64,000 bases of DNA from Chryseobacterium hagamense (GCF_007991455.1 NZ_BJYJ01000003.1:148715-212714), one strand, 5' to 3'. Numbered from the stretch's first letter, positions 8,562 to 28,920 are shown. Notes: generated by a model not told the origin, from the letters alone. Numbers and translations: made by a program.

Positions 8562-10917
8562 ATGACAAATTTCTCCAATAAACAGGCCTCTGAAAAGCAA
8601 AGGGTTGCCGAAACGGAAGCCCGCCTGAAAGCCCTGATCGAAGCAACTTCGGATGTGGTGTATTCCCTGAGCCCGGACTGGAGCGAGATGCGTGAACTCG
8701 ACGGCAGGCGTTTCCTGAAAGATGCAGCGGTACCGACGACCAGTTGGAAAACGGATAATGTGTATCCTGATGATCTTGATATGGTCAATGCAACCATTGA
8801 AAAATGCATCCGCGAAAAAAAAATATTCCAGCTGGAGCACCGCTTCGTCAGGGCAGACGGAAGAACAGGCTGAACCTCTCCAAAGCCATCCCTATTCTGG
8901 ATGGGGAAGGAAACATCACTGAATGGCTGGGGACGGCCAAGGACATCACCCAGCGAGAAGAAGCGGAGGAAGCCCTTTCCAAAATCAGGGTACGGTCTGA
9001 TCAGCAAAAAAGGCTGTATGAAACCATTGCCTCTTCAACACCGGACCTGCTGTATGTTTTTGATCTCGGTTACCGTTTTACGTATGCCAACAAGGCCCTG
9101 CTGAATATGTGGGGCAGAACATGGGAAGAGTCAATCGGGAAAGGACTGCTGGAAATCGGCTACGAGCCCTGGCATGCCGAAATGCACGAGCGGAAGATCG
9201 ACGAAATCATCAGAACCAGACTTCCCATACGTGGAGAGGTCTCTTTTCCCCACGCTACTCAGGGCACCCGTGTTTACGATTATATTTTCACTCCGGTCCT
9301 GAATGAAAACGGTGAGGTAGAAGCCATTGCCGGCGCAACCCGGGATGTAACCGAACGTAAAAAATGGGAAGAAAACCTGAAGGAGCTCAACAGAAAACTT
9401 GCCGGTACCAACCGTGAGCTTGCCGCAACGCTTGAGGAAGTAGCCAAGGTGAACGATGAATTGATCAGGGCCAATGAAAAAATCGAGGAAGGGCAGATTG
9501 CTTTCCGGCTGGCAGTGGAGGCGGCCAATTTCGGCACCTGGTTCATTCATTCCATCACCCGGGAATTTATTCCCGATGCCCGTTCCAGGGAACTTTTCGG
9601 TTACCGTGAAGATGAACCTTTGTCTCTTGAACAGGCCCTGGCACAGATTACCGATGAATACCGGCCCTATGTTACGGCAAACTTGAAAATGCCATTTACA
9701 ACAACGGCGATCATGATGTTACCTATCCTGTGGTCGGGTATTATGATCAGCGCCTTCGCTGGCTGCGTGCCATCGGAAACCTGAAAGCAGATTCTTCGGG
9801 TACGTTTTCCGCTTTTACCGGCGTTGTGATGGATATCACGGATCAGTATCTTGCGGGTGCCGAAATCAGGCGTGCAGAGGAGAGCCTGAGAATGGCAGTG
9901 GATGCAGCCGGTTTAGGGACGTTCCAGATCGGTGTGGAAGACCGCATCTTTACCTGTTCGCCGAAACTCAAAGAATTTTTCGGATTCCATCCGGATGAAG
10001 AAATGTCTTTTGAAGATGCCATGAAGCAGGTACATCCTGATTTCCGGAACCTGATGGCTGCGAATGCAGAAAAAGCATTTTCAGAAAAAGCCCGCTTTGA
10101 TATGGAGCACCTGATCATCGGCTATCATGATGAAAAGCCGCGTTGGGTACGCGCCATCGGTGAAATACAGCAGAAAGAAGGGAAAGAATATTTTGCAGGT
10201 GTGCTTCATGAAATTACCGAAAAAAAATTAGATGAGATCCGGAAGAACGATTTTATCGGTATCGTAAGCCACGAACTGAAAACCCCGCTTACTTCCATAA
10301 AAACATACATTCAGCTCATGCAGGCCAGGTCTGCAAAAATTGAAGACGGGTATATGGTCAGGATACTGGACAAAGCCGACCTCCAGATTAACAAAATGAA
10401 CACAATGATCAATGGCTTTCTGGATATTTCAAGGCTTGAATCCGGAAAAATACACATCAACAGACAGTGGTTTGATCTTTCAGATCTGCTGAAAGCCGCC
10501 GAAGAGGAAACAAAAGCTACGGTAGACAGCCATATTACTGTTTTTGAACCGATCCGTTCCGTACAGGTAAATGCCGACCGGGATAAAATTGCACAGGTAA
10601 TCCATAACCTCATCAGCAATGCCGTTAAATATTCTCCTGCCGGCAGTACCATCTGGATAAGCTGTACTTCGGATGACCGGTTTGCGTATGTAAGTGTTAA
10701 AGACCAGGGGAAAGGAATTAAAACTGAAGATATTGCCCATATTTTTGACCGGTATTACAGGGTGGAAAATGAAGAAATGCAGTCGATTTCAGGTTTTGGG
10801 ATCGGATTTTATCTGTGTTCGGAAATCATCACCCACCACCACGACTTTATTTCCGTAGAAAGTAATCCCTGCTCTGGATCCGACTTTGTGTTTTCACTTC
10901 CGCTGAATATGGATTAA
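8562..10917 (+). pseudogene. Multi-PAS sensor histidine kinase (PAS-PAS-PAS-HisKA-HATPase_c) interrupted by two -1 frameshifts
   Basis: ORFs 8562-8873, 8804-9784 and 9730-10917 read as one protein. The first junction, ...HRFVRADGRTG* / (R)LNLSKAIPILDGEGNITEWLGTAKDITQREEAE, lies inside a canonical PAS fold. The second junction (ITDEYRPYVTANLK / NAIYNNGDHDVTYPVVGYYDQRLRWLRAIG) lies at about 9676-9690. The H-box is IVSHELKTPLTSI. G-boxes are DQGKGI and GFGIGFY. Confidence 0.6.
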
Positions 10918-19226: not shown

Positions 19227-19868
19227 TCAATATTGAATCAGTGTTTCAAGATCGGAAGTTTTGTCCTCGCGGTAAAAATGCCCGTGAAAATCATTCAGTT
19301 TTTTCAGAAGATCCAGCAATGTCGTTTTTTCATTCTCATCCAACTGACCGGATAAAAATTTTGAGGTGATATTCACCTTATTTACGGATTCGTGAAATAC
19401 CTGCTCCCCTTTTGAAGTAAGGTTCAGCCTTTTGCTTCTTTTATCCTTTTCATCATTTTTTTCCGCTACCATCCCGGATTCCAGCAGGCGCCTGATAATC
19501 TGGGTTCCGGTCTGCTTTTCATGGCCGTTCCGCTCGATCAGCTGCATTTTGGTGAGGTTCGGTTCATCTTTGAGACGGTACAGGTAGGTAAATTCTTCAT
19601 TGGCGAGCTCAGGAAAGTCTTTGAGCCCTCTACGGATGGCCTGTTTCGAGTATCTTCCCAGCAGGAGAACCTGCTTGCAGATCTCATTTTCCGTAAAAGA
19701 AACTTCATGCTGTTCTTTTTTAAAAAGCTTGGTGGGGCTTTCTTCCCTGTACTTCCTGTCATTCAGCCACAACCGGAAATCCTCGGCAGAAGAATGAGGT
19801 TTACAGGCTCCGGAATTTTCAAAATCTTTTACCTGATGAAGCAGATCTATGAAAAAGTCAGTATTCAT
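19227..19868 (-). CDS. MarR-family winged-helix transcriptional regulator with an N-terminal extension
   Basis: The C-terminal half (LTKMQLIERNGHEKQTGTQIIRRLLESGMV...DKRSKRLNLTSKGE) matches the MarR wHTH pattern. Confidence 0.6.
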   Translation of the reverse strand: MNTDFFIDLLHQVKDFENSGACKPHSSAEDFRLWLNDRKYREESPTKLFKKEQHEVSFTENEICKQVLLLGRYSKQAIRRGLKDFPELANEEFTYLYRLKDEPNLTKMQLIERNGHEKQTGTQIIRRLLESGMVAEKNDEKDKRSKRLNLTSKGEQVFHESVNKVNITSKFLSGQLDENEKTTLLDLLKKLNDFHGHFYREDKTSDLETLIQY

Positions 19869-19907
19869 AATGCAAATTTAATCTAAAATAAAATAAGAAA
19901 ACCCAAG

Positions 19908-20606
19908 CTATAATTTCACACTGCCCATTCCCCCGTCTATTCCGAAAACCTGTCCGGTAATCCATGAAGCGTGATCCGAAATCAGGAAGGCTGCCATGGC
20001 CGCAATTTCTTCAGGATTCCCGGTTCTCTGCAGCGGATGTCTTTTGGCGGAAGCCTCGCGTTTTTCAGGGGTCGATAGCAGCTGTGCTGCCAGCTGGGTA
20101 TCCGTTAGAGAGGGCGCAATGGCATTCACCCTGATTTTCTGTGCGGAAAATTCGGCAGCCAGGCTTTTTGTCAGTCCTTCCACCGCATTCTTACTGGCAG
20201 AAACCGAAGCATGGAAAGGCATTCCCAGCTTTGCCGCCACGGAACTGAACAAGACCACGGAAGCACTTTCAGACTTTTTAAGGTTAGGCAATAGTTTCTG
20301 GATTATTTTTACCGCTCCCAATACATTGATTTCAAAGTCGTTTTTAAAATTCTCCACCGAAAGCCGGTTAAAAGGTTTCAGGTTGATGCTGCCCGGTGCA
20401 TACACCAATCCGTCCACTACCTCCGGAAAAGCAATTTCGTCGGGATTCCCTGAAAGGATATCCATTACATGAAATTCGATATTCGGATGGTTCAGTTCCG
20501 GATTGCCGGTTTTTGAAATTCCGATGATGTGGTGTTCTTCCGAAAGGATTTTTGCCGCGGCCAGGCCGATTCCTCTTCCGCAGCCGATGATGACGATGTT
20601 TTTCAT
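19908..20606 (-). CDS. SDR family oxidoreductase
   Basis: Rossmann motif IIGCGRGIGLA, a catalytic S...YxxxK context, 232 aa. Confidence 0.85.
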   Translation of the reverse strand: MKNIVIIGCGRGIGLAAAKILSEEHHIIGISKTGNPELNHPNIEFHVMDILSGNPDEIAFPEVVDGLVYAPGSINLKPFNRLSVENFKNDFEINVLGAVKIIQKLLPNLKKSESASVVLFSSVAAKLGMPFHASVSASKNAVEGLTKSLAAEFSAQKIRVNAIAPSLTDTQLAAQLLSTPEKREASAKRHPLQRTGNPEEIAAMAAFLISDHASWITGQVFGIDGGMGSVKL

Positions 20607-20631
20607 ATTTATTTTTTATGTTATCTTTTGA

Positions 20632-20985
20632 ATGTTTTTTGAACACAGAGTCCGCGAAGCTTTTTTAACTACCAGCCGCTTTCAGGTTTCACAAAGGCAT
20701 TTCATTTATAAAAGCCCACAGCGCATTTTTCATACATCCGTTTATCTTAATGTCATGCTGAACCAAACTTCTCCTGGATCTGACGAAGGAAAACCATGTT
20801 ATTGCTTAGGTTCTTTTGAATACAGAGCCCACGAAGCTTTTTTTACTACTAACTGCTTTCAGGTTTCAAAAGGCATTTCATTTCTAAAAGCCCACAGCGC
20901 ATTTTCATACCTGGGCCTTACGAAGGAAAGCTTTGTTTCCTACCTAATTTATTTTGACTGTAAGCCAGAAAAAGATCTCTAATCA
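20632..20985 (+). repeat. Array of about 2 units of an interspersed repeat of about 175 bp (MITE-like)
   Basis: Unit: gaacacagagtccacgaagcttttttt-actactaactgctttcaggtttcacaaaggcatttcatttataaaagcccacagcgcattttcatacctgggcctgacgaaggaaag... Near-identical copies occur at 21425-21640 and, inverted, at 57225-57475. Confidence 0.7.
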
Positions 20986-21075
20986 GCACTAAACTCAGCT
21001 TCTGATCATAGTACCCTAAAACTTATATTTAACTGATTTTAACCCATTTCTTTGTCTCAGTCTTAAGTTTTACCT

Positions 21076-21357
21076 CTATCTCTTCGAAATCTTATTATGG
21101 CTGATGATCCGCTGGCGGCTGCTTTTGAACCGCTGGATTTCCTCACTCCGTTTTTTCAGGTGCTTCTGGCTGACTCCCGAATTCACTCTTTTTCTCCAAA
21201 GCTTAAAACTCGATTCCTTAAGCTCGGAACGCATGAGTTCGATGACTTCCGCTTCACTGATCCCGAACTGGAACCGGATGGCTTCAAAAGGGGTCCGGTC
21301 TTCCCATGCCATTTCGATGATGCGGTCGGTTTCCTGTATGGTGAAATTTTTATTCAT
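21076..21357 (-). CDS. DUF2805 / TIGR03643 family protein (cryptochrome-associated)
   Basis: 93 aa. FTIQETDRIIEMAWEDRTPFEAIRFQFGISEAEVIELMR is the characteristic TIGR03643 sequence. The gene lies next to the cryptochrome/photolyase pair. Confidence 0.7.
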   Translation of the reverse strand: MNKNFTIQETDRIIEMAWEDRTPFEAIRFQFGISEAEVIELMRSELKESSFKLWRKRVNSGVSQKHLKKRSEEIQRFKSSRQRIISHNKISKR

Positions 21358-21424
21358 TGTTTTTATTTTTAATTGAACCTGGAGTTCATGAAGTTTTTAT
21401 TAATTATTATATTGATTACTTAAT

Positions 21425-21640
21425 TGTCTGGCTGAATCAAGTTTCTCCTGAGCCTGACGAAGGAAAGCAATGTTTATAGCTCAGGTTCTCTTGAACACAG
21501 AGTCCACGAAGCTTTTTTTACTACTAACTGCTTTCAGGTTTCACAAAGGCATTTCATTTATAAAGCTCACAGCGCATTTTCATACCTGGGCCTGACGAAG
21601 GAATGCCTTATTTATTGATGAGCTTCTTTTGAACACCATG
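21425..21640 (+). repeat. Second array (about 1.3 units) of the same ~175-bp repeat family
   Basis: ctcctgagcctgacgaaggaaagc...gaacacagagtccacgaagctttttttactactaactgctttcaggtttcacaaaggcatttcatttataaagctcacagcgcattttcatacctgggcctgacgaaggaatgcc. Confidence 0.7.
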
Positions 21641-21751
21641 CTTACAAATAAATTCTTTACGACTATCACAAAGCTACTTCGACAGGCTCAGCATCAGCTT
21701 TTTTCACTTACAGAAGCATCACCAGACTTAATCTATCACTCAACCCCAGCC

Positions 21752-23233
21752 TTAATCGCTCAAACCCTTAATCACCTTTTCAGCGGTTTTCAGGTGCTGT
21801 TTTCTTTTTTCTTCCGGCATTTTTTCCAGGGTGCGTACCATCATTGAGAGCCTTGGATTCTTCAGGAAGAAATCCTTATGTTCGTGAATAAAATTCCAGA
21901 ACAGTGCGTCCCATTTTTCCGTCCATTCGCCGCTGGGGTAATCGCTCATTTTTTTCAGGTAGTTGCTTCCGCTGATGTACGGCTTCGTGCTCATCTTCCC
22001 GCCGTCGGAGAAGCTGCTCATGCCGTAGACATTCGGAACCATCACCCAGTCATAGGAATCGATGAACATTTCCATAAACCACTGATAGACTTCATCCGGA
22101 TTGAACCGGCAAAGGTTCATGAAATTGGCAAAAACCATGAGCCTTTCAATATGATGGGCATAGCCGGTCTTCAGGATTTTTTTCAATGAACGGTCTATCG
22201 GGTGAATACCTGTTTCAGCCGTATAGAAGGTTTCCGGAAGTTTATTCTGATGGTTCCAGTAATTTTTATTCCGCTGATAGGTTCCCTGGTATACATAAAC
22301 ACCACGCACGAATTCCCGCCAGCCGACAATCTGCCGGATAAAACCTTCCAGCGAGTTGACCGGAATATCGTCTTCTTTCGCAAAGGCAATTGCCTTCTCC
22401 AATACATTTTCTGCAGTCAGAAGGCCCACATTCAGCAATGGGGAAAGGATGCTGTGATGCAGGAAATGCTCTTTTTCCACAATACTGTCTTCATACACCC
22501 CGAATTCGGCAAACCGGTTTTCAAAAAACTGGACCAGCCATTTTTCCGCTTCCCCGAAAGTGGTGGGATACAGCTGTTCTTCGGTCAGGCTGCCATAGTT
22601 ATCGGCAAAATGTTTTTCCGTATATTCTTTAGCCTCTTTGAAATAAACATTGTTCTCAGGGAAATGAATCGACGGTGCTTTCCGGTTCTTGGGATATTTC
22701 TTCCGGTTTTCCGTATCAAACGTCCACTTTCCGCCCAGCGGCTTTCCGGTTTTCATCAGGATGTTCCGGGTGATCCGCTGCTGTTTATAAAAATCGGTCT
22801 GATGATAGGATTTTTTATCCCCGAAATATTCTTTAAGGTCTTCTCTGGTGTTGATAAACAACGGGCTGTCCAGGATCTCAAGTGCAAGTTTTGTTTTCCG
22901 CAACCTTTTTTCCAGCCAATGGTCGCAGACATCGGTTGTTTTTATGGCTTTAAAGCCTTCCTCCTCAAGCTTTGGGATCAGTTTCCTGAGGTCTGAAATT
23001 TCAGAAGAGCTTTCAATATATTCCACTTTAAAACCTGCTTTTTCCAGAAAATCCTCATAAAATTTCATCGTAGCACGGTGGAAGGCAATTTTCTGTTTGT
23101 GGAAAGCATACTGCCTGAAAAACAGGAATTCTTCCAGCAGGAAAACCGGCTGGTTTTTATCTAAATACTCCGTGTCTTCAAACAGCTGGTGCGGGAAAAT
23201 GAGCTGGGCGGTATGTTTCAGTTTTGCAGCCAT
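21752..23233 (-). CDS. Cryptochrome/photolyase-family protein, DPRP / FeS-BCP (PhrB-like) type
   Basis: 493 aa. N-terminal LIFPHQLF...VFLLEE...FHKQKI (photolyase-related domain) and a C-terminal FAD-binding-type helical domain (WREF..YW, HH.ER). The start lies 16 nt inside the cry-DASH gene. Confidence 0.8.
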   Translation of the reverse strand: MAAKLKHTAQLIFPHQLFEDTEYLDKNQPVFLLEEFLFFRQYAFHKQKIAFHRATMKFYEDFLEKAGFKVEYIESSSEISDLRKLIPKLEEEGFKAIKTTDVCDHWLEKRLRKTKLALEILDSPLFINTREDLKEYFGDKKSYHQTDFYKQQRITRNILMKTGKPLGGKWTFDTENRKKYPKNRKAPSIHFPENNVYFKEAKEYTEKHFADNYGSLTEEQLYPTTFGEAEKWLVQFFENRFAEFGVYEDSIVEKEHFLHHSILSPLLNVGLLTAENVLEKAIAFAKEDDIPVNSLEGFIRQIVGWREFVRGVYVYQGTYQRNKNYWNHQNKLPETFYTAETGIHPIDRSLKKILKTGYAHHIERLMVFANFMNLCRFNPDEVYQWFMEMFIDSYDWVMVPNVYGMSSFSDGGKMSTKPYISGSNYLKKMSDYPSGEWTEKWDALFWNFIHEHKDFFLKNPRLSMMVRTLEKMPEEKRKQHLKTAEKVIKGLSD

Positions 23234-24516
23234 AGTTGTATAAATTCCTGGTTGGGATCGTACATTTCGGCCTGCTTTTCAGGATTGAAGATCCGGTCGC
23301 GGTTATCATTGCCAACACCGGCCAGGTACATCCAGTTGCCGTAATTGCTGTGGACATCATAATCGATCAGCAGCTCTTCAAAATAAGCCGCCCCGGTCCG
23401 CCAGTCCTGCTTCAGTACCTTGCAGAAATAGGAAGCTACATTCTGCCTTCCGCGGTTGCTCATCCAGCCGGTCTTGTTTAATTCAATCATATTGGCATTG
23501 ATGAAATCCGAATCCGTGGTTCCTTGCTTCCACTTACGGATCAGTTCATCATCATGTTCCCACACATATTCTTTTTTTCCGATTCCGTTTTTCCGGAAAA
23601 TCAGGTCCTGGTACTCCATAGAAACATACCTGAAAAAATCCCGCCACAGCAGTTCAAAAACCAGCCAGTACGTCGATTCGTTGCTGCCGGATTCCTGTTC
23701 GTACTTTTTAATCTCGTGATAAACGGTAACCGCGGAAAGGCTTCCGTCGGACAGCCAGGCCGAAAATTTGGAACTGTAATCAATTCCGGTTAAACCGTTC
23801 CGGGTTTCCTTATAGCTGCTGACATTCCGGGTCTCTGAAAAATAGGACTTCAGCCTGTTCAGGGCCTGCGTTTCTCCGCCACCGAAAGGAAAGGCCGTTC
23901 TGTTATCCGTTTCAAAATCTTCATATCCCAGCGATCCGAGGGTAACCTCATCACTCTGAACTTTGATCATGGCTTTGTCATAACTTATGTTTCCTGAGGC
24001 AAATTCAGGCCGGATCAGCAGATTCTTCTCAACCTTCTGCCTGAAGGCTGTAAACAGCATCGGTATTTTATCCATCGTCCTGGAAACAAACAGCGGATGC
24101 ACCAGAAACTGGGAATAGGATTTTTCCCAGCCTGCCATCGGCAGAACATTTCTGATTTCATTTTCTTTATCCCTTTCTTCTTTGGTCCATTCCTGCTGGC
24201 AGAAAATTTTTACGATGTCGAATTCACCGGACAATTCTTTAAAAACGGTTCCGGTAGTCCCCTGTCTTATCAGGAAAGGAATATTTCTCTTGTTTAAACT
24301 TTCTTTCAGATCTTCTATCGTTTCCAGCAGGAATCTTGCGCGGTATTTCCCGGTTTTCCTGCTGCCAAACTGCTTACTTCCGAAATCACGGCCGTCAAAA
24401 ACATACACTGCAAGGAAAGGCAATCTTTCCTGCATAATGTTGTATAACGGTTCCGAATCTCGGGTCCTCAGGTCTTTGGTGAACCAGAGGATGTTGATTT
24501 TTTGTTTTTCCGGCAT
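23218..24516 (-). CDS. Cryptochrome DASH
   Basis: [14 protein letters not shown]... then ...WREFF and FAD-binding C-terminal motifs ([17 protein letters not shown]). The internal Met at 24516 is preferred over the ORF-track start at 24558. Confidence 0.8.
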
Positions 24517-24624
24517 CTTTCGCTGCAATATTTTACTTCGTCCCAGTTTTTCTTCCATTTTTTTCGCCAGTTGAACGGCAATCCGCAGACTTCGCAGATT
24601 TTGGAGGGTAATCTGGACGGCATA

Positions 24625-25944
24625 TTAAGGTTTTATAAAATTTCTGAAGTTGTTGATCCTGATCCCTTTTGCTTTCAGGTCGTGCATCATATTGTACAGT
24701 CCGAAGAAGGTCCGGTTCAGGTAAATAAAATGCCGCGAACCGCGGTTGGTATTCATGCCTTTCATATCGCTGATTTTGGAATACCGCTGGCCCAGATCTG
24801 CGATTTCATGGAAGAAGCCTTCATCTGAAAAATCGAATTCCTCCTGATTGAAAGGCCGGGTAAACAGTTCCAGCAGCTCATAAAACAATTTGGCAAAAAA
24901 CTCTTTTTCCTTCGGCGTATCTTCTTCCCGCAGAATTTCCAGGGTAAACAGTTTCTCTCTGAAAATTTCAGGATTTTTAAGGTTTTCTTCTCTGGCAAGC
25001 TCAAAGTACGGCACATAGAAGTCTTCCGGAATCTCCTTGATACAGCCGAAATCAATCACCGAAAGCTGAACATCGTCCGAAACCAGGAAATTGCCCGGAT
25101 GCGGATCGGCATGTACTTTTTTCAGGATGTGCATCTGGTACATATAGAAATCCCATAAGGTTTGCCCTATTTTATTCAAATCCTCCGGAGTATTCTGCTT
25201 TTTGGTAAATTCCGAAAAATGGATCCCGGACATCCAGTCCATGGTGATGATCTTCTCGCACGAATATTCAGGGTAATAATCGGGGAACCGGACATTCGGA
25301 AGGTGGCGGCAGGCAGCGGCAAACAGCTGGCTGCGTTTCAGTTCCAGGTTATAATCGGTTTCCTCAAAAAGCTTGTCCTCCACTTCCTGGAAATAAGCTT
25401 CCGACCCTTCCTTTTTAATGTTGAACATTTTCATCGCGATGGGCTTCACCATTTTCAGATCGCTGGAAATACTTTCCCTCACGCCGGGATACTGGATCTT
25501 TACTGCCAGGTTCTGATCTCCTTTCCTGGCTTTATGAACCTGCCCGATGCTGGCAGCATTGACGGATTCCTGGGAAAATTCATCAAAAATCGCTTCCGGG
25601 TTTTTCCCGAAATATTTCCTGAACGTCTTTTTTACCAGTGCTCCGGACAACGGCGGAACGGAAAACTGCGACAGTGAAAACTTCTCCACGTATTCCACCG
25701 GCAGGATATTCTTTTCCATACTCAGCATCTGGGCTACCTTCAGTGCGGAACCTTTCAGTTCTTTCAGGGAGTCGTAAATATCCGATGCATTGTCTTCATT
25801 CAGGATTTTCCGGGCTTCCCCTTCATCTTTTGTTATTTTGTTCCCGTAATATTTCAGGTAATTGACACCGACTTTTGCCCCTGCTTTCAGAAGGCTGCCG
25901 GTGCGTTCAATTTTCCCGGTCGGGATTTTATCTAATGTTTTCAT
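24625..25944 (-). CDS. ABC1 / AarF / UbiB-family atypical kinase
   Basis: [10 protein letters not shown] (Gly-rich loop / Lys), HADPHPGN catalytic loop and a DFG-like IDFG. Confidence 0.8.
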
Positions 25945-26023
25945 TTTTAAATTTTAGGTGTTTAATACAAAGTCCGCCATGGTCATCCAAAGCCGTCAGC
26001 AAGCCGCCAAAAGCTTCAAGCAA

Positions 26024-26677
26024 CTATCTGAACTTTTCTTTCCAAAGGAATTTGCCCAGGTCAATGACTTTCCTCAACGGCTCATTCTCTATCAGTTCAA
26101 AACCTGTATCAATGGTCTTCTCGACAAAAATATCGGTCTTTTCAAAATCCGGCGAGGTATCCTTTTTCCAGAAATCGATGGCCGAAACAAAATGCAGCCA
26201 CAGGGTTTCCTGTCTGGCCTTTTCATTGAATCTCCTGAGGTCCTGCTTTGCTTTTTCAATCATTTCCCATTCATTGAAATCGAGGGTGGCAACAAACCGA
26301 CGGTGGGTTCTCCGTAAATTCTGGAGGACCTGGATTTCCTGAGCTTTCGCCGTTCCTAAAATCGACAGTACCAATGAACGGTTTATCGTCAGGTTTTCAA
26401 AGAAAATGAAATAGACGTTCAGGAGTTTTTCCTTCGTTAATATTTCAGGTGAGGCATTTACTTCTTCCGCGAGCTCCAGGGATTTCCTGAACAGATGATC
26501 CAGCATTTCTTTCTCGATCTGATCGAATCCGGAGAAGAAATGGTAAAATTCCTTTTCTTCAAAACCGTTATCTTTAGCAAAGAGATAAACGTTCTTCGGC
26601 CGTTCGCCATGGTTCAAAAGGTAGTCTCCGTACTGTTCAAATATTTTTTCCTGGGTAAGAGGGGTTTGTTCTTGCAT
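26024..26677 (-). CDS. TetR/AcrR family transcriptional regulator
   Basis: N-terminal HTH with the FYHFFSGFDQIEKEM signature. Diverges from ribA. Confidence 0.6.
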   Translation of the reverse strand: MQEQTPLTQEKIFEQYGDYLLNHGERPKNVYLFAKDNGFEEKEFYHFFSGFDQIEKEMLDHLFRKSLELAEEVNASPEILTKEKLLNVYFIFFENLTINRSLVLSILGTAKAQEIQVLQNLRRTHRRFVATLDFNEWEMIEKAKQDLRRFNEKARQETLWLHFVSAIDFWKKDTSPDFEKTDIFVEKTIDTGFELIENEPLRKVIDLGKFLWKEKFR

Positions 26678-26774
26678 GATAGAATTTATTTATAAACAAA
26701 TTTAGTAATTAATTTTATTTTCAATTGAAATAAAGTATAAATTTGTACTATATAAACTATTTAATTTTTGAATT

Positions 26775-27365
26775 ATGTTAGCGATACAGGCACAATCAAA
26801 CATCCCTACCGACTTCGGAACATTCAGTGTTTATGCATTTTCCGAACATGAGGACGACTGGAACCCGCATCTGGTATGGGTTGCAGAACCTACGGATTTC
26901 AGCAAAACCGTGAATGTCCGTTTTCATTCGGAATGCATTACCGGCGAAGTGTTCCATTCCAGAAAATGTGAATGCGGACAGCAGCTGGATGCCTCTATGA
27001 AGTATATGTCGGAGAACGGCGGGATGATCATTTACCTACGGCAGGAAGGCCGCAACATCGGGATCATCAATAAGTTGAGAGCTTATGCATTGCAGGAAAA
27101 GGGTTTCGATACGGTGGAAGCCAACCTGAAGCTGGGATTACCGGCAGATGGCCGTGACTTTGGCGTTGCTGTGGAAATGCTGGATCTCCTGAACATAAAA
27201 GAGATCAACCTGATGACCAATAATCCGGAAAAACTGAGAGCCCTGGAGAACAGCGGGATTAAATTAAACCAAAGAATCCCTCTTGAAATTGAATCGAATG
27301 AAACCAACGAAGGCTATCTGAGTAAAAAGAAAGATTATTTCGGGCATCTGCTGGAAAAGGTATAA
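26775..27365 (+). CDS. ribA: GTP cyclohydrolase II
   Basis: Zn-binding C-x2-C-x-C (HSECITGEVFHSRKCECGQQ) and the catalytic region RQEGRNIGI...K...YALQ. 196 aa. A TAAATTTG -7 promoter element lies at about 26737. Confidence 0.9.
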   Translation: MLAIQAQSNIPTDFGTFSVYAFSEHEDDWNPHLVWVAEPTDFSKTVNVRFHSECITGEVFHSRKCECGQQLDASMKYMSENGGMIIYLRQEGRNIGIINKLRAYALQEKGFDTVEANLKLGLPADGRDFGVAVEMLDLLNIKEINLMTNNPEKLRALENSGIKLNQRIPLEIESNETNEGYLSKKKDYFGHLLEKV

Positions 27366-27468
27366 TTTTCTCATTAGCTGAAAGAAATCCGGATGATCTG
27401 TTTACAGCTAATTTAAATTGACTGATCAACAACAGATTGCTGACTTCCGGCCAACCAATCCAAATTTT

Positions 27469-28920
27469 ATGAAAAAAATTCTGCTCACCGGGGCTACCGG
27501 TTATATCGGCAAACGGATGATTAACGTTATTGCGGCACAGGGTTACCAGGTCATCTGCTGCTGCAGGGATGCCGGACGTTTCTCGAAAAGCGTGGATATC
27601 GACGATGCCCAGATCGAAGTGGTGGAAGTGGATTTCCTGAAGCCCGAAACCCTGGAAAACATTCCGAAGGATATTTCCGGGGCCTATTATCTGATGCATT
27701 CCATGAGCAACAGCAACGATTATGCGGAGTCGGAAAAACAATGTGCCGTTAATTTTTCGGAATTTATTGAAAAAACGGATTGCGAACACATCATTTACCT
27801 TTCCGGCCTGGTGAACGAGAAACATCTTTCGGCGCATCTGAGTTCCCGTTTTGAAGTGGAAAAAATCCTGATGGAATGCAAAGTTCCGGCAACTGTTTTA
27901 CGGGCGGGGATTATTATCGGGTCCGGAAGTGCCTCTTTTGAGATCATCCGCGACCTGGTGGAAAAGCTGCCGGTAATGGTCGCCCCGAAATGGCTTCACA
28001 CCCGGTGCCAGCCGATCGGCATCGCCAATGTGCTGGATTTTTTGATCTTCACCTTATTCAAAAAACAGGCTTACCATAAAAATTTCGATATCGGGTGCGA
28101 CAATGTCCTTACCTACAAAGAAATGCTTCTGGAACTGGCAAAGATCCGCGGGTTGAAGAGAACGATCATTACCTTACCTGTGATGACCCCGAAACTGTCT
28201 TCCTACTGGTTATATTTCATTACGTCTACTTCGTATAACCTTGCCCAGGCACTGGTAGGAAGCATGAAGATCGAAGTGGTCTGCAGACCTGAAAGCCTCA
28301 GAGAAATAAAAGAAATTACCGGCGTACAGCCCTTTTCTTATGACACGGCGATCCGGAGGACCCTGGCAAAAATTCAGGATAACGAGATTGCATCGAGCTG
28401 GAAAGACAGTTTCATCAGCAGCCGCAGCGATTCCAGCCTCAAAGACTACCTTGATGTTCCAAAATACGGATGTTTTACGGATCTGCGCTCTGCCGAATAT
28501 GACGACCGCGAAAAATGCCTTGACCGTGTCTTTGCCCTGGGCGGAGCCAACGGGTGGTACGGACAAAGCCTCTGGAAAATACGGGGCTTTCTGGATCTGC
28601 TGGTGGGCGGGCCGGGGTTAAGAAGAGGCCGGACCAGTTCCACCCAGCTCCATGAAGGTGATGCGCTGGATTTCTGGCGGGTACTGCATGCCGATAAAAA
28701 AGAAGGCAAGCTGATCCTCTTTGCCGAAATGAAGCTTCCGGGAGAAGCATGGCTGATGTTTAAAGTACATAAAGGCAAGCTTTGGCAGAAGGCGGTGTTC
28801 CGCCCGCACGGACTCAGCGGAAGGCTTTACTGGTATTCCGTTCTGCCGTTCCACGGAATTATTTTTAAAGGGATGGTACGCAAACTTGCCCATCCGCAAC
28901 GACCTCCTGAAACTCCATAA
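27469..28920 (+). CDS. NAD(P)-binding SDR-like (NmrA/atypical SDR) domain fused to DUF2867
   Basis: ILLTGATGYIGKRM Rossmann motif. Long C-terminal domain. The internal Met at 27469 is preferred as the start. Confidence 0.7.
   Translation: MKKILLTGATGYIGKRMINVIAAQGYQVICCCRDAGRFSKSVDIDDAQIEVVEVDFLKPETLENIPKDISGAYYLMHSMSNSNDYAESEKQCAVNFSEFIEKTDCEHIIYLSGLVNEKHLSAHLSSRFEVEKILMECKVPATVLRAGIIIGSGSASFEIIRDLVEKLPVMVAPKWLHTRCQPIGIANVLDFLIFTLFKKQAYHKNFDIGCDNVLTYKEMLLELAKIRGLKRTIITLPVMTPKLSSYWLYFITSTSYNLAQALVGSMKIEVVCRPESLREIKEITGVQPFSYDTAIRRTLAKIQDNEIASSWKDSFISSRSDSSLKDYLDVPKYGCFTDLRSAEYDDREKCLDRVFALGGANGWYGQSLWKIRGFLDLLVGGPGLRRGRTSSTQLHEGDALDFWRVLHADKKEGKLILFAEMKLPGEAWLMFKVHKGKLWQKAVFRPHGLSGRLYWYSVLPFHGIIFKGMVRKLAHPQRPPETP

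Follow-up and report, generated by a model that had tools for sequence, protein, structure and literature searches.

Gene Content and Organization of the Locus

The DNA considered here is a 64,000-nucleotide stretch from Chryseobacterium hagamense (GCF_007991455.1 NZ_BJYJ01000003.1:148715-212714), referred to as the window at its full length, and our subject is a block of photolyase, cryptochrome, and regulator genes at positions 19227-28920, one arm of which begins with ribA, the gene for GTP cyclohydrolase II (GCHII). Light-protection clusters of this kind are known from flavobacteria, and by its gene content the block is a lineage-specific variant of them, marked by a ribA gene that Weeksellaceae have added to the divergent arm, by a Cys-less homologue of the 6-4 photolyases, and by an invariant core consisting of a TetR-fold protein, an ABC1-family kinase, and a short-chain dehydrogenase/reductase (SDR) fused to DUF2867. 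The explanation that we favor, with a probability of about 0.55, is that the locus represents the Chryseobacterium-type form of a light or photo-oxidative protection neighborhood of the Flavobacteriales, in which ribA would be a dispensable, co-regulated extra GCHII used for general flavin supply.

Gene calls are based on Pfam and NCBIfam profile scans of the window proteins (Table 1). An initial annotation, made from the sequence alone, had named seven genes between 21076 and 28920, and the scans place all seven where it had put them, including ribA and the SDR-DUF2867 gene on the plus strand, divergent from the minus-strand series, and the 16-nt overlap of the DPRP and cry-DASH genes (23218-23233). 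Its list of minus-strand genes was incomplete, as it overlooked the small DUF2256 gene, and its left edge has to be moved, as the conserved block continues through an SDR gene and a MarR gene to 19227.

Table 1. Features of the photoprotection block and its divergent control region (positions in the window; aa, amino acids; scores given with the model cut-off where available)
Feature	Position	Strand	Evidence and remarks
MarR-family regulator, 213 aa	19227-19868	-	Pfam MarR_2/MarR/HTH_27; end gene of the conserved block
Classical SDR, 232 aa	19908-20606	-	adh_short_C2, 150 bits
Repeat-filled spacer	20607-21075	.	direct-repeat families D1-D7 common with 21358-21751
DUF2805/TIGR03643 protein, 93 aa	21076-21357	-	PF10985, 120 bits; TIGR03643, 112.1 bits vs 66.55
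Repeat-filled spacer	21358-21751	.	two more copies of the GCCTGACGAAGGAA-core element
DPRP-family Cys-less 6-4-photolyase homologue, 493 aa	21752-23233	-	PF04244, 182.7 bits
cry-DASH, 432 aa from ATG 24516	23218-24516 (open reading frame to 24558)	-	TIGR02765, 458.1 bits vs 317.05
DUF2256 Cys-rich protein, 51 aa	24468-24623	-	PF10013, 77 bits
ABC1/UbiB-family atypical kinase, 439 aa	24625-25944	-	PF03109, 183.7 bits
TetR-fold protein (TetR_C_23), 217 aa	26024-26677	-	PF17931, 101.7 bits vs 29.1
Divergent control region, 97 bp	26678-26774	.	two -7 boxes and two 16-bp inverted repeats
Candidate -7 box, TetR side	26697-26704	-	reverse complement of TAAATTTG
AGTA-N8-TACT inverted repeat, 16 bp, imperfect	26704-26719	.	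abuts the TetR-side -7 box; perfect in many relatives
AGTA-N8-TACT inverted repeat, 16 bp, perfect, AGTATAAATTTGTACT	26734-26749	.	encloses the ribA -7 box
Candidate -7 box, ribA side	26738-26745	+	TAAATTTG
ribA, monofunctional GCHII, 196 aa	26775-27365	+	NF001591, 250.8 vs 148; TIGR00505, 227.8 vs 205.85
Atypical SDR (NmrA/epimerase-like Rossmann) fused to DUF2867, 483 aa	27469-28920	+	PF11066, 113 bits; NmrA, Epimerase, NAD_binding_10

The cry-DASH protein has both the photolyase N-terminal domain (PF00875) and FAD_binding_7 (PF03441) and scores above its subfamily cut-off over its full length; the ATG at 24516 is its likeliest start, and relatives are annotated at 432 aa. The reading frame of the SDR-DUF2867 gene is open from a TTG at 27418, the ATG at 27469 being the likeliest start, and in the Protein Data Bank (PDB) its product finds weak Rossmann-domain matches only, among them complex-I subunits of the 39-kDa type. 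The five minus-strand genes from the TetR-fold gene to DPRP lie close together, overlapping or 1-79 nt apart, with DUF2256 starting 1 nt past the ABC1 stop and overlapping the start of cry-DASH, and they are probably co-transcribed. No terminator-like structure was found between ribA and the SDR-DUF2867 gene, and a scan for sigma-70 promoters and terminators gave the same counts as shuffled sequence, the sigma-70 model being uninformative for Bacteroidetes promoters. The DUF2256 protein, which carries a CxxC...CxxxC motif, is the most conserved of the block, at 94-98% identity across genera.

Conservation of the Block and Its Wider Neighborhood

Relatives of the block were collected by scanning a genome collection with the ABC1 protein, which gave 80 species-level loci (numbered with the prefix L), each scored by tblastn for all the cluster proteins; the presence/absence statistics refer to the 55 Weeksellaceae-type loci with enough flanking sequence. 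The exact RibA protein was matched on metagenome contigs only, and its relatives at 87-94% identity all belong to Chryseobacterium or Epilithonimonas. In complete genomes the conserved order is MarR, SDR, DUF2805, DPRP, cry-DASH, DUF2256, ABC1, and TetR, faced by the divergent ribA and SDR-DUF2867, and the arrangement is no accident of position; it recurs in dozens of complete and draft genomes of Chryseobacterium, Epilithonimonas, Kaistella, and Cloacibacterium. The island described by the initial annotation is, in this respect, real, its order being conserved across the Chryseobacterium relatives. The MarR gene is kept in 44 of the 55 loci and the classical SDR in 45; the latter shares 50% identity with the SDR downstream of the PTPS-folE genes in Tenacibaculum clusters and could, by inference only, be a pterin reductase.

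The genes outside both block ends vary between genomes. In Chryseobacterium sp. C-71 (L091, 8466-12591) the SDR-DUF2867 gene is followed by contractile injection genes (Pvc16_N, phage sheath, gp19-like tube, CIS_tube), and in other genomes the same position is taken by 6PGD/G6PD or by a resistance-nodulation-division efflux pump; since differing genes follow SDR-DUF2867, the right-hand border is a variable junction. A second, divergent SDR-DUF2867 gene, 53-57% identical to the first, lies on the plus strand downstream of the cluster in L033, L034, and L039, at about 18-21 kb, and possibly represents a Flavobacteriaceae/Cloacibacterium-type paralogue. Chryseobacterium-like clusters, with ABC1 proteins 78-89% identical, were also met in four Sphingobacterium records (L054, L065, L067, L068), in Pedobacter flavus (L047), and in "Flavobacterium ichthyis" (L018); these six records nest within Chryseobacterium on the ABC1 tree, which suggests either horizontal transfer between classes or mislabelled assemblies.

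The wider setting of the block becomes visible in more distant families. In Flavobacteriaceae the TetR-ABC1 pair sits inside one long co-directional array, which runs through crtI, crtB, x, crtZ, lycopene cyclase (crtY), and TspO; then TetR, ABC1, flavin reductase, and SDR-DUF2867; then DUF2256, cry-DASH, a DPRP of the FeS-BCP type, and a further photolyase; and finally x, DUF2805, PTPS, folE (GTP cyclohydrolase I), x, SDR, and CIA30. In Tenacibaculum halocynthiae (L077, 4968-21112) this array spans 16 kb and has the pterin genes within the photolyase cluster. The notion, present in the initial annotation, of cofactor-pathway genes kept beside photoreceptors is therefore borne out by the folE, PTPS, and flavin reductase genes of the Tenacibaculum clusters, although not in the form of antenna supply by ribA, as discussed below; ribA was absent from the cluster in the Flavobacteriaceae loci examined.

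Closer to the window, Cloacibacterium rupense and a related metagenome-assembled genome (MAG), both deep-branching Weeksellaceae, have ribA 20 nt ahead of crtI; their operon reads ribA, crtI, crtB, x, crtZ, crtY, x, and SDR-DUF2867, and their divergent arm carries TetR, ABC1, DUF2256, cry-DASH, DPRP, DUF2805, SDR, MarR, and a cyclobutane pyrimidine dimer photolyase. The SDR-DUF2867 gene belongs to the ABC1 operon in Flavobacteriaceae and in Cloacibacterium is the last gene of the ribA-crt operon. Two Chryseobacterium genomes, those of C. shigense and sp. Leaf405, carry crt genes immediately past the ribA-side arm; no crt genes were found in the window. On the basis of this comparison with the Flavobacteriaceae, Cloacibacterium, and crt-bearing Chryseobacterium loci, the region is a reduced, Chryseobacterium-type form of a carotenoid/photolyase/cryptochrome photoprotection neighborhood.

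A known system close to this one is that of Dokdonia sp. MED134, a marine member of the Flavobacteriaceae, where the cry-DASH/DPRP/photolyase operon and crtBI are reported to be light-induced (bioRxiv 10.1101/2023.12.25.573297). The window shares with it (MED134_10201, 10206, 10211) the adjacent cry-DASH and DPRP genes, in that order, and, through its relatives Tenacibaculum and Cloacibacterium, the company of carotenoid genes, but it lacks the third photolyase, crt, TspO, folE, PTPS, and MerR, and has instead a Cys-less DPRP, ribA on the divergent arm, and MarR at the end; the light-responsive transcripts are those of Dokdonia.

Integrity, Associations, and Copy Number of ribA

RibA is intact and highly conserved, with equivalents of the zinc ligands Cys54, Cys65, and Cys67, and of Tyr105 and Arg128, of E. 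coli RibA (2bz0) all kept. Intact copies of ribA occur in 32 of the 55 loci, of DPRP in 40, and of cry-DASH in 34. According to odds ratios that are not corrected for phylogeny, ribA is indifferent to DPRP (1.3, p=0.76) and to cry-DASH (about 1.1, p=1.0) and strongly associated with SDR-DUF2867 (31, p=1e-6). In Epilithonimonas vandammei strains, cry-DASH is lost and DPRP truncated or fragmented, while ribA, SDR-DUF2867, TetR, ABC1, DUF2256, and DUF2805 are intact; in these strains and their metagenome relatives (L008-L010) cry-DASH persists as a 24-codon remnant, DPRP measures 437 aa or is in fragments, and the other cluster genes are intact.

C. formosus (134 aa), Chryseobacterium sp. ON_d1 (31 aa), Epilithonimonas sp. 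JDS, and Sphingobacterium faecium carry a truncated or degenerate ribA in its usual place (remnant loci L044, L049, L050, and L054), and ribA is frameshifted in sp. Leaf201 (L033), where an assembly error is possible. The deepest Weeksellaceae branches of the ABC1 tree carry ribA, which on that tree was lost about ten separate times. In summary, ribA joined the cluster in Weeksellaceae alone, travels with SDR-DUF2867, and has been lost or has decayed repeatedly, regardless of the photolyases.

Decay in place requires either another GCHII or a riboflavin importer, and for this reason ribA is probably not the sole essential copy. Named RibA matches from two database searches include 8 of the 17 named species that have ribA at the locus and none of the 16 that lack it (Fisher p=0.003), which argues against a relocated copy, and every context of this RibA clade, more than 60 in number, is the same TetR-ribA arrangement. 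We consider it fairly probable that ribA is a dispensable extra copy. Of the "dedicated ribA copy" proposed initially, the part concerning dispensability is thus suggested by the in-place decay and the losses, and the tie to the photolyases falls away.

Paralogues of ribA or ribBA that lie outside the main rib operon and are regulated separately are known in Vibrio cholerae and Aeromonas salmonicida (PMC5312566, PMC10012899). The gene in the window resembles them as a monocistronic-type GCHII without an FMN (flavin mononucleotide) riboswitch and with a separate, stress-type control region, the differences being that redundancy is here inferred and that the context is a photoprotection cluster. 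In the 64-kb window no Rfam family reached its gathering score, hence no FMN riboswitch (RFN element) was detected. A literature search on ribA beside photolyases in Flavobacteria, on DUF2867, and on ABC1/TetR with photolyases found nothing relevant.

The Divergent Control Region

Throughout Chryseobacterium and Epilithonimonas, the spacer that separates ribA from the TetR-fold gene keeps the same length, 97 bp, and shows a column identity of 97%. In 10 of 10 comparisons with relatives it matches at the nucleotide level about as well as the coding DNA of ribA, TetR, and ABC1 beside it, or better, as exemplified by L017 (0.95 vs 0.74-0.80 for coding DNA) and Cloacibacterium (0.74 vs 0.63-0.72). 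The -7 promoter box of Bacteroidetes has the consensus TAnnTTTG, and two candidates for it stand back to back in the spacer, one for each arm.

The initial annotation had expected a TetR-type palindrome in this spacer, and the search indeed yielded two conserved AGTA-N8-TACT inverted repeats that flank or overlap the -7 boxes. They are 30 bp apart, and both occur with the same spacing in Cloacibacterium; the pattern has two matches in the window, against 0.26 expected. A 17-mer around the second repeat is found exactly once per locus in 52 of 92 loci examined, was upstream of the TetR-fold gene in every locus checked, and is kept, slightly altered, in species where ribA is deleted. The AGTA-N8-TACT pattern was not found upstream of the Flavobacteriaceae clusters and for this reason is not generalisable. 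The inverted repeat ACAAATTTA...TAAATTTGT was also considered as one long TetR palindrome and was rejected, because its arms are the two divergent -7 boxes (TAnnTTTG); to judge from sequence, the two shorter repeats are the better operator candidates. For binding them, MarR is as good a candidate as the TetR-fold protein. In two Agriterribacter MAGs (L071, L072), the region some 130 bp before the TetR-fold gene is made up of degenerate tandem repeats of a GCTGA(A/T)(A/T)G type, unlike the AT-rich control region of the Weeksellaceae.

Since the spacer is so highly conserved, with palindromes and back-to-back -7 boxes, co-regulation of both arms is plausible. To this extent the co-regulation of ribA with the cluster that had been proposed at first stands, and what does not stand is its purpose, namely antenna supply.

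A Proposed Role for ribA and Its Main Rival

In the explanation that we favor, both arms would respond to one signal, which may be light, photo-oxidative stress, or an isoprenoid-derived ligand, and ribA would belong to the divergent arm that, in carotenoid-making relatives, is the carotenoid operon (ribA-crtI-crtB-crtZ-crtY-SDR/DUF2867). With the regulon switched on, ribA would raise the general supply of flavin adenine dinucleotide (FAD) and FMN, both for newly made flavoenzymes (CrtI in the relatives, cry-DASH, and the photolyase) and for the replacement of photodamaged flavin. In the Flavobacteriaceae version, the folE/PTPS pterin genes and the flavin reductase would be the counterpart of such a supply. 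In E. coli, ribA belongs to the soxRS regulon.

The main rival, rather unlikely in our estimate, holds that ribA is the sole housekeeping gene of its kind and came to lie beside the cluster by a lineage-specific accident, without any functional or regulatory link. In its favor, and weighing against the explanation just given, are several observations. Within the genus, RibA proteins are 88-94% identical, a level like that of a housekeeping enzyme; ribA is retained where the photolyases, i.e., both cry-DASH and DPRP, decay, and it is not part of the cluster outside Weeksellaceae. Moreover, a second GCHII, such as ribBA, was found in no Chryseobacterium genome with the searches made: tblastn of the window and the loci examined with RibA and E. 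coli RibB returned no ribB, DHBP synthase, or second GCHII, and a search of 1.84 billion representatives returned RibBA-type proteins, none of them assignable to Weeksellaceae. To these points must be added that the count of ribA losses comes from a single-protein neighbor-joining tree and is not corrected for phylogeny, that the TetR-fold protein, one of two candidate binders of the repeats, may lack DNA binding, and that a need related to CrtI is not applicable to this genome as far as the window, without crt genes, goes.

What tells against coincidence is, first, that, with one copy and no importer, the in-place decay in four species and the roughly ten losses would have been fatal, and that the ribA-less species show no relocated copy among the named matches. 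In addition, the -7 box of ribA lies inside an invariant palindrome, within a spacer whose conservation is close to that of coding DNA or exceeds it, the more than 60 contexts of the RibA clade are all of one arrangement, and the window has no FMN riboswitch.

The TetR-Fold Protein and the ABC1 Kinase

The most constant part of the neighborhood is the TetR-ABC1 pair, which is present in every locus with a long enough contig, including those of Sphingobacterium, Tenacibaculum, Polaribacter, and Kordia, and which in Agriterribacter stands alone among unrelated sugar-metabolism genes. ABC1 is 68-94% identical across Flavobacteriales, Sphingobacterium, and Agriterribacter; it scores far under the UbiB cut-offs (TIGR01982, 155.8 vs 487.55; PRK04750, 121 vs 667) and by its sequence is a member of the ABC1 family rather than UbiB proper, with mycobacterial ABC1/MABP-1 and COQ8A/B as relatives in the PDB. 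A limited literature search gave no description of the TetR-fold/ABC1/SDR-DUF2867 core.

The partner of the kinase was called a TetR-type regulator by the initial annotation. Its C-terminal TetR domain is confirmed (PF17931), its role as a regulator is doubtful, and the MarR gene of the block had been overlooked. The protein has no match to TetR_N (PF00440) even at E<=5, and its homologues bear NCBI names of the "C-terminal domain-containing" kind only. The N-terminal 80 residues have a net charge of -9 in the window protein and of -8 to -10 in most Weeksellaceae-type homologues, the range over all homologues being -10 to +1, and an F-E-E motif, two of whose three residues are invariant, starts the predicted recognition helix. 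An AlphaFold2 model shows a three-helix, helix-turn-helix (HTH)-like N-terminal domain at pLDDT 70-82, with 55.7 overall and pTM 0.40, and a profile search of the PDB with the family aligned the FadR HTH at E=0.002 and did not recover COQ9. Because no TetR_N match was found, the HTH region is acidic, and the pairing with ABC1 persists even without photolyases, we regard the role of island regulator as doubtful for this protein.

The mitochondrial pair COQ8 (ABC1/ADCK3) and COQ9 offers a comparison, as it likewise joins an ABC1 kinase to a lipid-binding partner of the TetR fold; the TetR-fold protein here invariably accompanies ABC1 and has an acidic, non-canonical HTH region. The bacterial COQ9 model TIGR02396 weakly matches the same C-terminal stretch of three divergent TetR-fold proteins (window, 26024-26677; L077, 9345-10004; L071, 5450-6115), at E-values of 0.009, 7e-5, and 0.11, each protein being paired with a COQ8-family ABC1, and a Pfam COQ9 match was obtained at E=0.046. 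As an identity for the TetR-fold protein, COQ9 is unlikely, since the PDB profile search favored the FadR type; the AlphaFold2 model was too poor for a fold comparison.

These features lie behind a second, unlikely rival, which takes the core as a homeostasis module for isoprenoid lipids (carotenoid or menaquinone), made of the ABC1/COQ8-like kinase, the possibly COQ9-like TetR-fold protein, and SDR-DUF2867, with photolyases, cry-DASH, and ribA as passengers that came to a stress-induced locus and MarR, rather than the TetR-fold protein, as the binder of the repeats. The universality of the pair and its isolation in Agriterribacter fit this idea, and so do its position in Flavobacteriaceae, directly between crt genes/TspO and SDR-DUF2867, the match of ABC1 to COQ8A/B, the weak COQ9-model matches, and the absence of a TetR_N match together with the acidic HTH region and its conserved FEE motif. 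The COQ9 matches, however, cover about 30 residues only and lie far below the cut-off, indeed below any threshold, the PDB search finds FadR and not COQ9, and a model at pLDDT 56 does not permit a comparison of folds; furthermore, Bacteroidota use menaquinone, the host is without a ubiquinone pathway, and there are no quinone genes in the locus. The module is not exclusive of the photoprotection explanation, and the two could be merged into a still more speculative and quite improbable scheme, in which the TetR-fold protein and ABC1 would be a lipid-sensing bacterial counterpart of COQ9/COQ8, rather than a classical repressor, at the center of a Flavobacteriales photo-oxidative-stress regulon, MarR would act on AGTA-N8-TACT, and the regulon would have recruited, in Weeksellaceae, an inducible and dispensable GCHII, so that light or stress would turn on flavin synthesis along with the carotenoid, cryptochrome, and photolyase genes.

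The DPRP Protein and the Question of an Antenna

The DPRP protein was aligned with PhrB (4DJA) and the Caulobacter enzyme, and then in a multiple alignment with its homologues. Its best PDB matches are the bacterial 6-4 photolyases 9hnk, PhrB (4dja), and CryB (3zxs), with E from 1e-70 to 1e-78, and with a PF04244 domain, an FAD-binding domain, and the His365-His366 pair it belongs to the prokaryotic 6-4 photolyase group. The initial annotation had called it PhrB-like. In the FeS-BCPs, four cysteines that ligate a [4Fe-4S] cluster are completely conserved (Oberpichler et al., PMC3204975), and PhrB, CryB, and related FeS-BCPs bind the antenna 6,7-dimethyl-8-ribityllumazine (DMRL), a property tied to the "ceiling" pair Glu37/Arg108 and to the motif Y-V-x-H (PMC9178010).

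None of this is retained in the window protein. The positions of C350, C438, C441, and C454 of PhrB read P, P, gap, and E, and four other DPRPs of Weeksellaceae and Sphingobacterium show the same loss, with C350 replaced by P, C438 by P, A, T, or M, C454 by E, K, N, or D, and C441 removed, in the window protein and the four homologues alike, by a 10-residue deletion. In the DMRL pocket of the window protein E37 is F, R108 is deleted, and I51 is H; the D-loop motif (YVGH in PhrB) has become Y-(gap)-A-F, or Y-(gap)-x-F when the four homologues are included, and the glutamate near N5 of FAD (E403) is a methionine in all five. Compared directly with PhrB of A. fabrum and CryB of R. sphaeroides, the protein shares the DPRP N-terminal and FAD-binding domains (phmmer E about 1e-73) and keeps His365-His366, W390, and Y424, but differs, beyond the cysteines and the antenna residues, by E403 to M, Y391 to F, and W342 to Y. 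To judge from its residues, it is a Cys-less prokaryotic 6-4-photolyase homologue and not a PhrB-type FeS-BCP, and the PhrB-like assignment is withdrawn. Cys-less proteins, e.g., PromaPL of Prochlorococcus, have been placed in a separate "subgroup M", whose antennae are unknown and probably diverse (PMC9178010); the window protein resembles this subgroup in features, rather than by position in a tree, as it has no Fe-S cysteines, a non-canonical antenna pocket, and a Met near N5 of FAD, as do most non-ABG members.

Conversely, in the DPRPs of Tenacibaculum none of the four cysteines is missing and the DMRL signature is complete, and their clusters carry folE and PTPS and no ribA; ribA is therefore found in precisely the lineage that lacks the DMRL signature. 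It is thus very improbable that, as first proposed, a dedicated ribA supplies DMRL to an adjacent PhrB-type photolyase: the idea draws on the adjacency and probable co-regulation of ribA, on the DMRL of the FeS-BCPs, and on the apparent dispensability that would allow ribA to be "dedicated", but it is opposed by the missing signature, by the Tenacibaculum clusters, by the independence of ribA from DPRP and its retention after DPRP decay, and by the absence from the cluster of lumazine synthase (RibH), the enzyme that makes DMRL.

Spacers and Dispersed Repeats

Both gaps flanking the DUF2805 gene are filled by copies of a dispersed repeat element of 140-180 bp, whose core GCCTGACGAAGGAA has 4 matches against 0.03 expected, with copies at 20607-21075, at 21358-21751, and at about 57346. 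By sequence the element resembles intergenic elements of the miniature inverted-repeat transposable element or repetitive extragenic palindrome type. A plus-strand open reading frame of 116 aa at 20632-20982, for which no Pfam match was found, is probably spurious and created by the repeat copies. DUF2805 and DPRP, whose gap in the window is 21358-21751, either overlap in relatives or are separated by about 170-210 bp. The DUF2805 gene, which here adjoins a cluster with cry-DASH, is present in 53 of the 55 loci and does not depend on an adjacent cry-DASH, because about 20 of these loci have none in cis. The spacer between the TetR-fold and ABC1 genes is 79 bp in the window (25945-26023) and about 0.5-1 kb in close relatives (e.g., L004, 8730-9243; L020, about 8975-10000), a variation in length that points to repeated insertion there.

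Significance

Current knowledge is not overturned by these findings; the attractive idea of antenna supply is contradicted, and general flavin supply is possible. The comparison shifts attention within such "photoreceptor islands", whose conserved core is the TetR-fold/ABC1 pair together with SDR-DUF2867 and not the photolyases, and it yields further testable points, namely the Cys-less 6-4-photolyase homologue of Weeksellaceae and a precise pair of candidate operators. If ribA is indeed co-induced with the cluster, the locus would provide a clear example, in bacteria, of flavin synthesis wired to the response to light or photo-oxidative stress, and this flavin link would stand beside the folE/PTPS pterin genes of the Flavobacteriaceae cluster.

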